A stretch of 64,000 nt of DNA from Ignavibacteria bacterium (GTDB taxonomy: Bacteria > Bacteroidota > Ignavibacteria > UBA10030). The DNA is taken from assembly GCA_016873805.1 (NCBI GenBank), contig VGVZ01000014.1, forward strand, positions 8,522 through 72,521, written 5' to 3'. A program made the translations under genes and the position numbers. This document shows positions 21,733 through 61,257 of this stretch, piece after piece. How positions within the stretch are numbered: the first letter of the stretch is position 1; each line of letters begins with the position of its first letter. The notes under the pieces were generated by a model. It was not told the origin of the DNA, made no database searches, and saw only the letters and a program-made list of their open reading frames with translations.

Positions 21733-21974
21733 GAGTCCCGATTCAGTTAATAACTGCAAGGCGTAAAAAGGGAAACAAGTGACAATGTCATGCTGATCCC
21801 GACGATTTCTGTCGGGAGACGCATCTGATCTCTCGGTGTTCAGATGCTGCGGCTGTCTCGCCGCTTGGGCTTGGCCGCTCTGCCCCGCCCGCGCCACCGT
21901 GAAACAGCAGCCCCGCCCCAAGGTGACTCAGAACGGGGTTGTTCTTTTCCAGACGGGAAAAGCAAATTGAATTC

Positions 21975-31139: not shown

Positions 31140-31499
31140 GGGGGTGACACGGCTTCGACGGGGATGAGGAAGCTCAGAACTGCATACCGTGGTCTCCGGG
31201 TCCACGTTAAACAATCGGTAAACCCTTAAGTGCCGACTACAACTACGCACTGGCTGCTTAATTAACTTAAGCAACCCGTTCTCTCGATCTCTCGCCCGTT
31301 GGGGATCTTGAGAACGTCGCTCAGATGGGCTAGTTCTCCATTGTTCTCAGGGATGGAGGACGAATCCGCCGCAAGCGGAACACCCTGAGATAGTGTGCGG
31401 TCAATCCAGCGTGCCGGAGTTTCCGCACATGAACCCAAAGGGCTCGCTACGTATGGAGACGTTCTGAGGGTCTTCTCTTCGGACCGGGGTTCGACTCCC
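31140..31499 (+). ncRNA. ssrA: tmRNA (SsrA); tag reading frame 31232-31261 encodes ADYNYALAA*
   Basis: 5' GGGGGTGACACGGCTTCGACGGGG (tRNA-like domain, G3 pairs with U giving the Ala identity pair). Tag ORF GCCGACTACAACTACGCACTGGCTGCTTAA. 3' T-arm GGACCGGGGTTCGACTCCCCG plus acceptor CACCTCC-A. Followed by a hairpin terminator. Confidence 0.8.
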
Positions 31500-31503
31500 C
31501 GCA

Positions 31504-31536
31504 CCTCCACTGCAAGCCCTCATCAGACCGATGAGG
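31504..31536 (+). terminator. Intrinsic terminator after ssrA
   Basis: AGCCCTCATC-agaccg-GATGAGGGCT followed by TTTT. Confidence 0.7.
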
Positions 31537-57094: not shown

Positions 57095-57171
57095 GGGGTC
57101 GTAGTTCAGTTTGGTTAGAACGCCTGCCTGTCACGCAGGAGGTCGCGGGTTCGAGTCCCGTCGGCCCCGCA
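57095..57171 (+). tRNA. tRNA-Asp (anticodon GTC)
   Basis: Cloverleaf read by eye: acceptor GGGGTCG/CGGCCCC, D-arm GTTC..GAAC, anticodon stem CCTGC/GCAGG with loop CTGTCAC, T-arm GCGGG-TTCGAGT-CCCGT. Confidence 0.9.
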
Positions 57172-57209
57172 AAAGCAAAAATGCCCCTCGCGGGCATTTT
57201 TGCTTTTGC
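57169..57209 (+). terminator. Intrinsic terminator after tRNA-Asp (first copy of a repeated block)
   Basis: Perfect palindrome GCAAAAGCAAAAATGCCC-ctcgc-GGGCATTTTTGCTTTTGC. Confidence 0.7.
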
Positions 57210-57299
57210 CATTGATGATGCGGCTGTGTCCCGCTCGCTTTTTGAGCGGGGTCGGCCCTCGCAGAAAGAACTTCTTTCACAGGAAGCCTTTTTTTTGTT

Positions 57300-57566
57300 G
57301 TGGCACACTGGGTTTACATCATCCAAAGTGAGGCTGATGGAACGTATTATGTAGGTTCAACGGAAAACGTTTCCGCTCGTTTGGAGCAACACAATCTTGG
57401 CTGGACACGCTCAACGAAAGCGATGCGCCCGTGGAAGGTCGTCCATATCCAAGAGTGTCAGACGAAAACTGAAGCGATGAAACGTGAACGACAGATCAAA
57501 CAAATGAAGAGCCGTGTCTATATCCAGCGGCTCATTCTGGGCGCAGGAGGTCGTCCCGATCCGTAG
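57300..57566 (+). CDS. Small GIY-YIG nuclease-family protein (YhbQ/UPF0213-like), GTG start
   Basis: WVYIIQSEADGTYYVGSTENVSARLEQHN is the GIY...YIG...R...E...N motif. The ORF's last codons and TAG stop lie inside the tRNA-like fragment at 57543-57591. Confidence 0.65.
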   Translation: MAHWVYIIQSEADGTYYVGSTENVSARLEQHNLGWTRSTKAMRPWKVVHIQECQTKTEAMKRERQIKQMKSRVYIQRLILGAGGRPDP

Positions 57567-57591
57567 GATCGGGAAGTCCCGTCGGCCCCGC
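57543..57591 (+). pseudogene. tRNA-Asp 3' fragment with the T-arm replaced by a 9 bp perfect hairpin (TCCCGATCC-gtag-GGATCGGGA), followed by a terminator copy
   Basis: GCAGGAGGTCG[TCCCGATCCGTAGGATCGGGAAG]TCCCGTCGGCCCCGC compared with intact GCAGGAGGTCG[CGGGTTCGAG]TCCCGTCGGCCCCGC. Confidence 0.7.
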
Positions 57592-57705
57592 AAAAGCAAA
57601 AATGCCCCTCGCGGGCATTTTTGCTTTTGCCATTGACGATGCGGCTGTGTCTCGCCTGTCCCGCCAGAAAGCGGCGGGATCAATTTGGTTCTTTGCAGGA
57701 CAATC

Positions 57706-57746
57706 GGGGTCGTAGTTCAGTTTGGCTAGAACGCCTGCCTGTCACG
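57706..57746 (+). pseudogene. tRNA-Asp 5' fragment (positions 1 to ~39, through the anticodon loop) directly upstream of the integrase
   Basis: GGGGTCGTAGTTCAGTTTGGCTAGAACGCCTGCCTGTCACG, then unrelated sequence. Confidence 0.7.
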
Positions 57747-57881
57747 AGTATTTCTCCACGGTTTCTTCTTCATTTCTGATTTGTTTTCCGCACAGCGCCC
57801 TTCAAGCACCTTTCACGTCTTCTGACACTTTCCAGCCTTAGAGCTCTCAGCATCACTCATCTGCCACTTTTTGGAGGAGTT

Positions 57882-58883
57882 ATGCCGAGCCTCATACGTC
57901 ACAAAAACGGGATCTACTACGTCGTTTCCACGGACAAGGGCAAGCGAATCTGGCGATCACTCCGCACGAAGAACCGAAGGCAAACCTACCAGGTGTTCCT
58001 TGAGCGAAATCCCGCGGAGGTAGAGCAACAGGCACTATGTCTACAAGAGGCGGAGAACCAGTATCTGGACTACGTAAGCACCAACTTCTCACCGACCACC
58101 GTTAACGTATATCGAAATATTTCTTCCCAGTTCAACAAGTTCATTGGAAACCCACGTATCAACGAGATCACCATACGCGATATTGAGTTATACAAGTCCA
58201 GCCGAATTCGGACTGTTTCTCCAAGTACTGTGAACCATGAACTTCGGGGACACAAGGCGTTCTTCAATCGCCTTGTTATTTGGGATCTCCTCCCAAGGAG
58301 TCCAATGAACGGTGTGAAAACGATCAGAATCACGGAGAAGACCAGGCCGTATCTCTCGAAGGAGGAACTTCAAAGGCTTCTCGACTACACGAGCGGGACA
58401 CCGCTTCACGATATCATACTTCTGACCGTTATGACCGGACTTAGGAGAGGTGAACTCATCAACCTAACCTGGGAAGATATTGACTTCGCTCGAGGCACCA
58501 TCCTCGTCAGGAGCCGTAAAAATCACCAAACTAAAGCCGGAAAGAAACGGGTCTTGCCTATGAACACGACCGCAAGAATTCTTCTGGGGCAAATGAAGGG
58601 CAGACAAGGAAGGCTTTTTTCGGGTGAACGAGGGGGATTACTTAACGGGAACCTCTTGAGAGCAAGATTCAAAAGAACGGTGAGGGCGTGTGGTTTGGAT
58701 AGCAGACTTCATTTTCACTCACTCCGACATACGTTTGCCAGTTTGTTGGTTAAGGAGGGTGTTTCTTTGTATCATGTACAGAAACTCCTGGGCCATTCCT
58801 CGCCACGAGTTACAGAAATCTACGCGCACTTAGGTGGTGCTGAGTTGCTTGGATCCGTTGAAAAACTCTGCAACGAAAGGTGA
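57882..58883 (+). CDS. Tyrosine-type site-specific integrase/recombinase
   Basis: Catalytic residues in conserved context: R (LRRGE), HSLRHTFAS, LLGHSS, and nucleophile Tyr in TEIYAH. Confidence 0.9.
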   Translation: MPSLIRHKNGIYYVVSTDKGKRIWRSLRTKNRRQTYQVFLERNPAEVEQQALCLQEAENQYLDYVSTNFSPTTVNVYRNISSQFNKFIGNPRINEITIRDIELYKSSRIRTVSPSTVNHELRGHKAFFNRLVIWDLLPRSPMNGVKTIRITEKTRPYLSKEELQRLLDYTSGTPLHDIILLTVMTGLRRGELINLTWEDIDFARGTILVRSRKNHQTKAGKKRVLPMNTTARILLGQMKGRQGRLFSGERGGLLNGNLLRARFKRTVRACGLDSRLHFHSLRHTFASLLVKEGVSLYHVQKLLGHSSPRVTEIYAHLGGAELLGSVEKLCNER

Positions 58884-58961
58884 TTGTTCAACGTCTCTTC
58901 GAGGCGGGTGGGCGTGGGCAGATCCCTGGAGAAAGGAGGCGAGGCATGTCGAAGGTGAACA

Positions 58962-59279
58962 CTAATGTGGCGTTTCTGTCTTGTACTCTCTTTGACGTAG
59001 TCGGGATCGGATAATATCATTAAGGAGAGCGCGATCGAATTCCTGAATATTGTCGACATCGATCTTCTTGGTCAATTCACCCCTGGAGTACTCTAACGCC
59101 AATTGACCGAAAATCTCATCAAAAAAGGATACCGAGGCGACCAACACATTTCCGAAGTCGATCCTTATGGTGTCAACTTTGTTCCACTGGTCAATGATCA
59201 GGTCGTGAACTACTTTCCCGTCGTCTCGAGTGACGATGTTTTTGCCACACGTTTCAATTATGTTGATCATGTATTCCAT
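58962..59279 (-). CDS. Small STAS-like (DUF4325-like) protein, putative partner of the adjacent GHKL ATPase
   Basis: 105 aa. IRIDFGNVLVASVSFFDEIFGQL resembles the DFSGV..ISSSFLDEL core of STAS/anti-sigma-antagonist-like domains. Family assignment is from memory only. Confidence 0.4.
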   Translation of the reverse strand: MEYMINIIETCGKNIVTRDDGKVVHDLIIDQWNKVDTIRIDFGNVLVASVSFFDEIFGQLALEYSRGELTKKIDVDNIQEFDRALLNDIIRSRLRQREYKTETPH

Positions 59280-59281
59280 AC

Positions 59282-60214
59282 TCAGAATATTGGCTCGTCT
59301 CGCATCTCTGATTCGAGGATATATAGCCCCTCTCCGTCGGCCCTCGCAATAATATTGACAATTGTGCCTTCAAAAGCAATCCGGAGCTTCTTCTGCCAAA
59401 TGGCGACACCATTGCCATTCTTGTAGTTCCAGTGGACCCATCCATCTCCAGACATGATATGGATTTCGCCCTCGTTGACCTTCAAGAATCTATGGATATG
59501 GGTTAATCCAAGACCAGCGAGTTTCCCAACGCGACTCGAAACGCCCTCTTCAATGGCAAGCTTAATTGCATCAATTGAATTTGTAAGATGAGCATAGGTG
59601 GGAACAGAGGACAGAGCCCTGAGGATACCACGCCCAAAATCTGTAATACAGATGTTTACGTTGCCTCGTTCGGTGTAGGATTGAGCGCAAACAAAACATC
59701 CTTCCAGTGTTTCACTATGGTCAAAGGTATTCGTCATCAGCTCGTTGATACTCAGGTGCAGGGAATCCTTCACCCCCTGGGACATAGTCAAAACACTCTG
59801 AAGAACGTTGATGATCGTGCTTGTGTATGTTGGATCCAATCCGTTGAAATGCCGTAGTTCCGCTTGGTGATGGGCATATTTCATGGCTCCATCTCGCCCT
59901 TTCCCCCATTCGTAGAATCCAATGCTTGTCAGATATTCATTGAGTTTCTTGTTGAGTGCAGGACGGTAGCTAACAACATGTCCGCGCGCGATACACGCTT
60001 TGGCGGCTCCAACAATGAAAGTGATAGCGAATGGATCGCTGAAGGCGCAATTGGACAAGTCAAACAGTATCTCCTGATCAGGGGAGAAAATTGCGGCTTG
60101 GCACCTTTCGATGATGCAATTGGCATTCCTGATGGTGAGAAGCAGCGGGAACTTTACGACATGCATATTGGAACTCGCGATGGTTGGCTCAGAGTATCGC
60201 AAAAATAGCAACAT
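59282..60214 (-). CDS. GHKL (HATPase_c) ATPase/kinase-like protein with N-terminal STAS-like domain
   Basis: N-box LSINELMTNTFDHS (ExxxNxxxH), G1 ITDFGRGI (DxGxG), G2 GKLAGLGL. The N-terminal ~140 aa (EILFDLSNCAFSDPFAITFIVGAAK) is STAS-like. Adjacent small gene separated by 3 bp. Confidence 0.55.
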   Translation of the reverse strand: MLLFLRYSEPTIASSNMHVVKFPLLLTIRNANCIIERCQAAIFSPDQEILFDLSNCAFSDPFAITFIVGAAKACIARGHVVSYRPALNKKLNEYLTSIGFYEWGKGRDGAMKYAHHQAELRHFNGLDPTYTSTIINVLQSVLTMSQGVKDSLHLSINELMTNTFDHSETLEGCFVCAQSYTERGNVNICITDFGRGILRALSSVPTYAHLTNSIDAIKLAIEEGVSSRVGKLAGLGLTHIHRFLKVNEGEIHIMSGDGWVHWNYKNGNGVAIWQKKLRIAFEGTIVNIIARADGEGLYILESEMRDEPIF

Positions 60215-60595
60215 TGGCGACCAATTTCAATTCCTGGGTTCATGAACTTTCTTCGGATGTTTTGACGACTGTCTGAGAATGACATCGGTCCCACCAATGT
60301 TGTGACAATCTGCGGGGTTGAAGATGGTGTCTTCCCGATCGCACAACTACCTCAGAAGCGATATGATCTCGGGATCGAGGAGGCAAATTGACGTGCAAAG
60401 ATAAAAACAGTCACGTCCAGCGAGGCGCTATCGCAATCAACATCATGGCGAGTGGATCGAAAAAGCACCCTCCGATTTCGGGATTAGACTTTTCGGGATC
60501 CACACAGTTAGATTTGACCCCGAGCCGGCGTAGTATGTGCTTGGAACGCCATCTGGCGAGTGATTAAGAAAAGTTATACCTTTCGAATGTTCCTT

Positions 60596-60671
60596 AGTTT
60601 GGTTAGAACGCCTGCCTGTCACGCAGGAGGTCGTCCCGATCCGTAGGATCGGGAAGTCCCGTCGGCCCCGC
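60596..60671 (+). pseudogene. tRNA-Asp 3' fragment (from the D-loop onward) with the same hairpin-substituted T-arm, followed by a terminator copy and flank repeat
   Basis: AGTTTGGTTAGAACGCCTGCCTGTCACGCAGGAGGTCG[TCCCGATCCGTAGGATCGGGAAG]TCCCGTCGGCCCCGC. Shares a 27 nt D-loop-to-anticodon-loop overlap with the 5' fragment at 57706-57746. Confidence 0.7.
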
Positions 60672-61257
60672 AAAAGCAAAAATGCCCGCGAGGGGCATTT
60701 TTGCTTTTGCCATTGACGATGCGGCTGTGTCCCGCTCGCTTTTTGAGCGGGGTCGGCCCTCCCAGAGCAGACCCAATCCCCCATCGAGGGGGTTGGGTCT
60801 TTTCTTGTAATGGGCACGTGACTCTATCCCGCCTGATTATTTTCACTTGCAGATAACTTGTGGGCGCTTAGCGTTTTCGAGAAAAAACTCTTCCGGTAGT
60901 GTCGTTACTCCAAAGAGATAAAGGATGCCTGTCGCTCCCCCACCTTGCAAGATACAACTACCCCTTCCGGCATGCGGCAAGATGTCTTCCTTTCGTTGAT
61001 CCAACCTCTCGACGCTCATCAGCATCGATGACACGGCCTTCCCGTCGAAACAGACCATGGAACGTTGATCCTCCTGAGTCTGCTGGAGATTGTTCCTTTC
61101 CGTCCTCTCTTGCAACACCAACGTGTGGAACGATAACGTACTTTTCCGATGTTCATCTGAGCGACAGTTTCCGGCAGCAATTCTCATTTTTGCTTCTCAG
61201 GAGTTATTTGTATATTAAGCTGATTTTTTCAGACCGCATGAAGGACAGAAGACGTAG

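Follow-up and report, generated by a model that had tools for sequence, protein, structure and literature searches.

The locus described here surrounds a tRNA-Asp gene at positions 57095-60800 of a 64,000-nucleotide stretch of contig VGVZ01000014.1 (assembly GCA_016873805.1; the whole stretch is referred to below as the window), whose host genome is of Ignavibacteria type. On balance, we favour the view that it contains two unrelated selfish elements lodged at one tRNA-Asp: an integrase island, and a cassette built around a miniature GIY-YIG nuclease gene that may spread by a mechanism akin to that of SegB from phage T4. The anatomy of the locus is near-certain, and an earlier interpretation made from the letters alone (the sequence-only reading) was right to regard it as a composite of two elements. 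Taken by itself, the integrase island is an ordinary, slightly atypical tRNA-gene (tDNA) island. The interest lies in the other element, in which the GIY-YIG gene is coupled to a tRNA copy with one arm swapped for a hairpin, and which represents a widespread and apparently undescribed family.

The locus opens with an intact tRNA-Asp(GTC) on the forward strand (57095-57171), its sole functional tRNA, which had been recognised from the start and is called by ARAGORN (57095-57170), matches the Rfam tRNA family RF00005 (70.5 bits, E=1.8e-14) and folds into a cloverleaf. A repeat search of the window recovered a 114-nt block three times, at 57121-57234, 57542-57655 and 60622-60735. The three blocks of tRNA 3' part, terminator and flank proposed in the sequence-only reading are therefore real repeats, but in copies 2 and 3 the T arm is no longer a T arm: the tRNA segment CGGGTTCG has been swapped for TCCCGATCCGTAGGATCGGGA (57554-57574 and 60634-60654), a 21-nt hairpin of the form TCCCGATCC-GTA-GGATCGGGA with a 9-bp stem and a 3-nt loop. 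Copies 2 and 3 are 95% identical, whereas copy 1 reaches only 77% in ungapped register because of the indel in the T arm. Each block carries a 41-nt terminator, found by the same search, which had been described as a perfect palindrome; all three copies do have perfect 18-nt arms, but the 5-nt loop is itself non-palindromic. They lie at 57169-57209 (copy 1, loop CTCGC), 57590-57630 (copy 2) and 60670-60710 (copy 3, 100% complementary to copies 1 and 2). In the third the loop is inverted, reading GCGAG against CTCGC in the other two while the arms are identical, as if recombination between the arms had flipped the middle of the hairpin.

Between the first two blocks lies the GIY-YIG gene (57300-57566, forward strand, GTG start), which encodes an 88-residue protein similar to UPF0213 and SLX1 and whose earlier assignment is upheld by a Pfam match to PF01541 (E=1.4e-18). 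The gene runs into the second block, such that its last eight codons (GAGGRPDP) come from tRNA-derived DNA and its TAG stop falls within the hairpin loop. The tRNA-derived DNA in question is a pseudo-tRNA-Asp 3' fragment (57543-57592, forward strand, tRNA positions about 38-76 by alignment) in which the hairpin stands in for the T-stem 5' strand plus TTCG. Close homologues end in GAGGRPDP, GGRPE or EVVPI, the last being what this stretch of DNA (GTCGTCCCGAT) encodes when the frame is shifted. Since these tails share DNA in different frames, the conservation lies in the DNA.

The first genomic contexts fetched for homologous genes had a common arrangement, each gene adjoining an intact tRNA-Asp and running into a partial tRNA copy with a TCCCG...CGGGA hairpin. 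A genome-wide scan added 80 loci, with hosts among the Ignavibacteriota, Bacteroidota (including Aquimarina), Cloacimonadota, Calditrichota, Marinimicrobia, Balneolales, Desulfobacterota, Nitrospirota and others. In a scripted analysis of 82 full-length homologous genes from 83 loci and about ten phyla, a tRNA on the same strand lies upstream of 55 genes at a median distance of 54 nt (45 Asp-GTC, four Arg-TCT, three Gly-GCC, two Val and one Ala); many of the remaining genes sit at contig ends, where an upstream tRNA would be hidden. The hairpin is present at the end of the open reading frame (ORF) in 60 of the 82 genes, with the stop codon inside it in 30, and hairpins are 27-fold enriched around GIY-YIG genes. 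Among those loci with both flanks mappable onto a tRNA, the hairpin replaces positions about 51-59 (the T-stem 5' strand plus TTCG) in 18, the architecture of the window, and positions about 28-46 (the whole anticodon arm) in 20. These two types occupy separate halves of the protein tree, and within the halves the tRNA species has switched, from Asp to Gly in one and from Asp to Arg or Ala in the other. The fragment is linked to the tRNA beside it: its 3' part has 0.6 mismatches to the tRNA of its own locus compared with 6.6 to the tRNA-Asp of other loci. The hairpin is likewise conserved, with an invariant outer 5 bp and inner pairs that covary (95% of cells paired, a score reached by none of 500 shuffles).

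Several loci carry variants of this arrangement. In the tRNA-Arg(TCT) type of Aquimarina (L072:2380-3250) the anticodon stem alone is swapped, from TCTGC/GCAGA to TCCCGA/TCGGGA, and the loop keeps TTCTAA together with the anticodon; one stem-swapped tRNA-Arg copy in L074 is called a tRNA by ARAGORN, with a 4-nt anticodon. Hairpins of the TCCCG...CGGGA kind, nested or doubled, also occur as insertions in the D loop of tRNA-Asp 5' fragments, at L095:5740-5880 (equivalent to L096 and L178), at L097:2928-3015, in the window at 57659-57705, and in L021. One of these fragments is the piece displaced beside a homologue of the integrase discussed below, and that of L097 precedes an intact tRNA in a relative whose fetched contig holds no GIY-YIG gene. 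There are four proper hairpins in the window, three of them at this locus; the fourth (21797-21817, TCCCGACGATTTCTGTCGGGA) is intergenic, and no tRNA-like flank was seen beside it. The system recalls REP/RAYT elements in having a short, conserved, GC-rich palindrome in several local copies that flank a small nuclease gene, but differs in that the nuclease is GIY-YIG and not HUH/Y1 and in that the palindromes are local and lie inside tRNA-derived sequence. We rejected REP-like dispersal on the grounds that there are four hairpins in 64 kb and that they are concentrated 27-fold at GIY-YIG/tRNA loci. A group I intron or other known RNA was also rejected: an Rfam scan of 56.5-61.5 kb at E<=1 found no intron family, the tRNA is uninterrupted, and only about 40-130 nt are non-coding.

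The breadth of the module bears on an account in which a single integrase is responsible for everything. The sequence-only reading treated the repeated blocks as att sites of the integrase and the GIY-YIG unit as an integrase-type insertion; on the fullest version of this idea, the 0.4-kb GIY-YIG and 2.9-kb units would both be tyrosine-integrase insertions, tandem or nested, the former lacking an integrase and being mobilised in trans. Formally, a tRNA followed by an insert and a 3' fragment that begins at the anticodon loop is indeed the signature of an island at an anticodon site (PMC4383910), and an integrase specific for tRNA-Asp resides at the same locus. Nevertheless, the module is found at about 80 loci, yet a tyrosine recombinase lies within 2.5 kb at only two of 84; the identity of the replaced arm follows the clade of the GIY-YIG protein; and a conserved arm-replacing hairpin in the fragment is not a product of att duplication. 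Moreover, the repeat that the integrase did produce is not the block but a segment from the D loop to the anticodon loop, with displacement of a 5' fragment, a geometry that does not fit the GIY-YIG unit. We therefore regard this explanation of both units as largely refuted and very improbable.

The 88-residue protein is predicted to adopt the GIY-YIG fold (pLDDT 85.5), with the last five residues, which are tRNA-derived, disordered. The catalytic residues Y6, Y17, R27, H31 and E63 are invariant among 12 homologues. Its closest solved relatives are the UPF0213 protein BH0048 (1zg2) and the SLX1 nuclease domain, with I-TevI much further away: phmmer gave E=1.4e-7 for 1zg2 and E=2.7e-6 for 1ywl, and the top Foldseek matches were 1zg2 and SLX1, the latter with a TM score of about 0.6 at 30-34% identity. 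Sequence and predicted fold thus agree in placing the protein with UPF0213, the group of BH0048, EF2693 and YhbQ of E. coli, and all five catalytic residues (Tyr, Tyr, Arg, His, Glu) are kept. SLX1 differs in needing SLX4 and in carrying a RING domain. The wider UPF0213 family comprises 23,369 cluster representatives at E<=1e-3. Many ORFs in this family (for example P0198) have N- or C-terminal tails which are translated tRNA, such as ...GVAQFGLARN...VVGSNPSSPT, gene-calling artefacts that arise because the genes are linked to tRNAs.

By analogy with SegB, we propose that the element is a homing or recombination cassette for tRNA genes. The cassette is made up of a spacer, the gene for the 88-residue nuclease and part of the adjoining tRNA, copied with its T-psi-C arm swapped for a stop-bearing hairpin. 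The nuclease would attack tRNA-gene DNA within one arm, which differs between the protein clades (T arm or anticodon arm), and repair by homologous recombination via the tRNA-derived sequences would copy the cassette, often together with the intact tRNA gene. The tRNA copy within the cassette, no longer having the arm under attack, would be spared. Rounds of cutting together with unequal recombination could then generate the duplicated tRNA-3'-part/terminator blocks, the tandem arrays and a second, hairpin-bearing full-length tRNA-Asp that we call tRNA-Asp*, which on this view arose when the swapped fragment converted a tRNA copy already resident there.

The precedent is close in several respects. 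SegB of T4 and T6 is a free-standing GIY-YIG gene embedded among tRNA genes, and its product, which recognises GGTTCRANTCC in the T-psi-C stem-loop, cleaves tRNA genes at their 3' ends (PMC2330249). The segment swapped out here (CGGGTTCG) holds the core of that recognition motif. SegB carries neighbouring tRNA genes along with it, sites in its own genome are tolerated via low expression, and its stop codon is thought to be clipped off by tRNA processing, because the end of its ORF overlaps a tRNA (PMC2330249); it also drives tandem segmental amplification (PMC13096335). The differences are equally clear. SegB is a phage-borne protein of about 220 residues with a NUMOD3 DNA-binding part, whereas the protein here has 88 residues and the catalytic domain only; the gene is nearer to SLX1/UPF0213 than to I-TevI and is chromosomal in many bacterial phyla; and it is paired with an arm-swapped, hairpin-carrying pseudo-tRNA, with a sister clade that swaps the anticodon arm instead.

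The module varies in both presence and copy number, which points to mobility or recombinational activity. The cassette is present at the site between tRNA-Asp and the gene for pyruvate dehydrogenase (PDH) E1alpha in the window and in L006 (72% identity), while in L097 (PDH E1alpha 74% identical) tRNA-Asp is followed directly by PDH E1alpha. These are the three comparators in all: a metagenome scan for PDH E1alpha found the upstream tRNA-Asp kept in one (L097) of about 26 close or medium relatives, and the synteny is therefore shallow. Within the window's own population, two assemblies have one unit and two have at least two, with tRNA-Asp* placed before the gene. Arrays of two to four gene-bearing units occur in L027, L043, L051 and L072, and truncated GIY-YIG genes are found in other genomes. 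At L021:1294-2450, twelve near-identical 96-nt gene-less units, each an arm-swapped tRNA-Asp 3' fragment with the terminator of that tRNA, stand in tandem behind tRNA-Asp and are followed by a GIY-YIG gene with a differently looped fragment.

A number of observations weigh against a SegB-like cassette. The intact tRNA, with the supposed target arm, stays beside the gene; the cassette's own copy lacks the arm, yet an intact tRNA is adjacent, as is also the case for SegB. Immunity in its simple form accounts neither for the invariance of TCCCG/CGGGA across phyla, tRNA species and arms nor for the appearance of this hairpin in the D loops of 5' pseudo-fragments. The protein is a single catalytic domain and lacks a separate DNA-binding domain, unlike the characterised site-specific GIY-YIG homing enzymes, all of which have a DNA-binding module. 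Searches for the gene on plasmids gave no match and those on phages two weak matches in Staphylococcus phages. The protein tree broadly tracks taxonomy, and inheritance may therefore be mostly vertical. Finally, both L003 and L004 are contigs whose first bases fall within repeats, so that passage through a cycle of the assembly graph could account in part for the two-unit haplotype. A similar mini GIY-YIG gene was also seen at the very end of an IMG/VR contig (L179:14240-14532), where it ends at GGTCGTCCCGACGGGTCGGGAAGTCCC; this gene and its hairpin are probably host DNA flanking a prophage.

Some of the same facts would suit a domesticated, non-mobile host gene co-transcribed with the tRNA, whose hairpin end serves processing, stability or translational control (for example through removal of the stop codon by RNase P or RNase Z, or through binding of the hairpin by the protein), with the repeats as ordinary local duplications. 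The short median distance behind the tRNA, the stop inside the hairpin in half of the 60 hairpin-ended genes, hairpin covariation of the kind expected of a structured RNA, the roughly taxonomic protein tree and the essential lack of plasmid and phage copies all agree with it, and for SegB too, down-regulation through processing of the tRNA at the stop codon has been suggested. However, a strong bidirectional terminator separates the tRNA from the GIY-YIG gene in the window, and the module is present or absent at orthologous sites and varies in copy number within one population. The 12-unit gene-less array, the truncated pseudogenes and the switches of tRNA species also speak against it, and the invariant outer stem suggests recognition by a protein or of DNA beyond mere pairing. 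We consider domestication unlikely.

A further alternative places the hairpin at the centre. Of 45 loci, 12 have a 5' pseudo-copy of their tRNA, most often hairpin-bearing, at 63-149 nt upstream of the intact gene (L021, L027 at 2283-2340, L034, L046, L049, L051, L056, L062, L069, L076, L087 and L089). These copies are mostly cut off just past the hairpin, and the tRNA and GIY-YIG gene appear inserted between overlapping halves. It is conceivable, if distinctly unlikely, that the true site at which a structure-specific nuclease of SLX1 type recombines or cuts DNA is the TCCCG...CGGGA palindrome, and that the mobile unit is the intact tRNA plus GIY-YIG gene, bounded by hairpins and inserted into a resident tRNA so as to leave two overlapping, hairpin-marked halves. 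The closest solved relatives of the protein are SLX1 nucleases, which cut branched DNA, and the hairpin is invariant over arms and tRNA species and extends to D loops. On the other hand, the 5' half is missing in 33 of the 45 loci, target-site logic does not account for replacement of an arm in place of insertion, and we know of no GIY-YIG transposase or recombinase. This alternative overlaps with the SegB-like explanation instead of excluding it. More speculatively, the arm-swapped tRNA copy might be no by-product but the specificity determinant of an enzyme without a DNA-binding domain, and in RNA form or extruded from the DNA it would steer the 88-residue nuclease towards the matching tRNA gene. 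The layout, in which a hairpin 'handle' overlaps the 3' end of the ORF and is flanked by tRNA-matching sequence, is guide-like and reminiscent of the omega-RNA of TnpB and IscB, although we hold this to be highly doubtful.

In contrast to the GIY-YIG unit, the unit of about 2.9 kb with integrase and cargo is, as first supposed, a discrete insertion at an anticodon loop. Its body (57747-60595, 2,849 bp, forward strand) has a GC content of 47.8% compared with 53.7% for the window, and is bracketed by a 28-nt direct repeat whose two copies differ at one position (57719-57746 and 60596-60623, both on the forward strand) and which runs from the D loop to the anticodon loop; the overlap between 5' and 3' fragments had been noticed correctly, but its length was given as 27 nt. 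On the left, the repeat search identified attL as the displaced 5' part of tRNA-Asp* (57706-57746, forward strand, tRNA positions 1-41), which matches tRNA-Asp at 40 of 41 positions and lies, as had been pointed out, next to a tyrosine integrase. The integrase gene (57882-58883, forward strand, 333 residues; PF00589 E=2.7e-35, with N-terminal SAM-like domains) starts 136 nt from attL. On the right, attR (60596-60672, forward strand) comprises the repeat and the rest of tRNA-Asp* to its 3' end, with the T-arm hairpin at 60634-60654. It scores 21.7 bits in Rfam (gathering score 29), has no ARAGORN call and lacks the acceptor 5' strand. The attR copy is no functional tRNA, and the island regenerates none. 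Apart from the tRNA, this sub-threshold match at attR and a chance snoRNA match, the Rfam scan of the region gave nothing else.

Joining 57746 to 60624 in a virtual excision yields a sequence with 2 mismatches in 253 nt to the sister metagenome contig L003:440-692, which at 515-603 contains an uninterrupted full-length tRNA-Asp with the T-arm hairpin, namely tRNA-Asp*, and lacks the island body. The same copy occurs in L004, an independent assembly; both contigs start inside repeats, which qualifies these examples of the empty site that had been sought. In its cloverleaf fold, tRNA-Asp* has a bare hairpin, devoid of a T loop, where a T arm is expected. By these matches the island is a precise insertion into tRNA-Asp*, and not into the functional tRNA-Asp that the sequence-only reading had supposed to be the target. 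In our model, the island with its two cargo genes integrated site-specifically at the anticodon-loop region of tRNA-Asp*; the 5' half would have been displaced next to the integrase because attP shares the 28 nt with the target, and regeneration of a tRNA would have been unneeded, as the copy that was hit had lost its function beforehand. Viral contigs did not contain the attP junction predicted for the excised form (...GTTCCTTAGTTTGGTTAGAACGCCTGCCTGTCACG|AGTATTTCTCC...).

The integrase has 1,608 homologues, the closest of which is 64% identical. The expectation that the same combination of integrase and att site would be found elsewhere was borne out: three homologues examined (53-62% identity, in five contigs) each lie about 150 nt from a tRNA-Asp 5' half that ends ...CCTGCCTGTCAC (...CTGTCAC). 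The integrase family is specific for this site in tRNA-Asp and displaces the 5' fragment. No regenerated tRNA-Asp or second repeat was found within 10 kb downstream of two of the homologues. Their cargo varies (HsdR, Fic plus RadC, or Fic). In the window the cargo consists of two genes on the reverse strand, one for a DUF4325 STAS-like protein (58962-59279, 105 residues; PF14213 E=1.5e-10) and one for a 310-residue protein (59282-60214) with weak similarity to histidine-kinase-like ATPases, below the Pfam cut-offs (HATPase_c E=1.4e-4). The pair matches adjacent parts of one PADLOC DrmA model, residues 139-243 for the 310-residue protein and 332-398 for the DUF4325 protein, and comparison suggests that it also occurs as an N-terminal fusion in some DISARM helicases. 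A known defence system was considered and rejected, as PADLOC gave weak partial matches alone (PDC-S14 for the GIY-YIG gene and the DrmA model for the cargo).

The island resembles the tDNA islands catalogued in Islander in its integrase at the edge, direct repeat from the tDNA, anticodon-loop crossover and displaced tDNA fragment, as well as in its small, variable, defence-like cargo and a GC content below that of its surroundings (PMC4383910). Islands with a displaced 5' fragment are a minority class there, at 159 of 3,919 (PMC4383910). It differs in that no functional tRNA is regenerated and in that the target is a pseudo-tRNA inactivated by a hairpin.

Given the number of near-identical repeats (40-170 nt) and the fact that L003 and L004 begin inside them, it might be asked whether the locus is an artefact of metagenome assembly, through mis-collapse or chimeric joins, which the sequence-only reading had named as a possible refutation. 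Two other, independent samples, however, contain the exact arrangement of the window, with 4.4 kb matching at 99.98-100% identity, and the integrase sequence is also present in an NCBI metagenome-assembled genome labelled 'Ignavibacteria bacterium'; this is therefore no assembly accident. Diagnostic differences (in the T arm, in the orientation of the loop and at single bases) also set the copies apart, and the same architecture is seen in about 80 unrelated genomes. The probability of an artefact appears close to negligible.

In the literature searched, which was thin in subscription journals such that a prior description is possible, we found nothing to link GIY-YIG, UPF0213, YhbQ or COG2827 to tRNA. 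A phylogenomic paper of 2006 on GIY-YIG makes no mention of a tRNA association, and neither a function nor a genomic context of UPF0213 is described in the works covered. UPF0213 (YhbQ-like mini GIY-YIG) is a very large family with solved structures, and the locus provides a concrete, testable context for a large part of it. It also accounts for the annotation of many short 'GIY-YIG family protein' ORFs whose odd N- or C-terminal extensions read through a tRNA. If these are homing or recombination cassettes of tRNA genes, they would contain the smallest such nucleases known and would be a chromosomal bacterial counterpart of phage SegB. They would in that case also give rise, unnoticed, to pseudo-tRNAs, to duplicated tRNA genes and to sites that act as decoys for integrases, as exemplified by the island here, which landed in a dead tRNA copy and not in the live one. 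Were the guide-like reading true, the module would represent homing elements of a new class, programmed by nucleic acid and directed at tRNA genes.

The sequences that follow the terminators hint at a longer history. Flank A (57210-57263, forward strand, delimited by sequence and pattern coordinates) contains a 19-nt spacer common to all three blocks, a decayed hairpin, TCCCGCTC..GAGCGGGG (57229-57251), and the 12-mer TCGGCCCTCGCA (57252-57263), which is like a tRNA acceptor 3' strand. The matching layout in L035, L075 and L079 leads us to infer that it is the leftover of an older pseudo-tRNA fragment. Flank B (57631-57705, forward strand) has the shared spacer together with a hairpin at 57659-57679 (TCCCGCCAGAAAGCGGCGGGA) and what resembles the remains of a D loop, TCAATTTGGTT...CAATC. 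Its homologue in the relative L097 is the 5' pseudo-fragment, likewise with a hairpin, that precedes tRNA-Asp. Flank A' (60711-60800, forward strand) repeats the decayed hairpin and acceptor-like remnant of flank A (60730-60764) before a native terminator hairpin at 60769-60800. The three flank hairpins (57229-57251, 57659-57679 and 60730-60752) are of the same class and two of them precede an acceptor-strand-like TCGGCCCTC(G/C)CA, and we read hairpins and remnants as probable older, decayed copies. The 12-mer TCGGCCCTCGCA recurs at 59337-59348, in the coding end of the island's 310-residue gene, which is probably due to chance, though unexpected for a 12-mer in 64 kb. A tRNA 14-mer at about 3790, within a coding region, is a chance match. 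Lastly, the window contains a tmRNA gene at 31140-31510 with the tag peptide GKPLSADYNYALAA.

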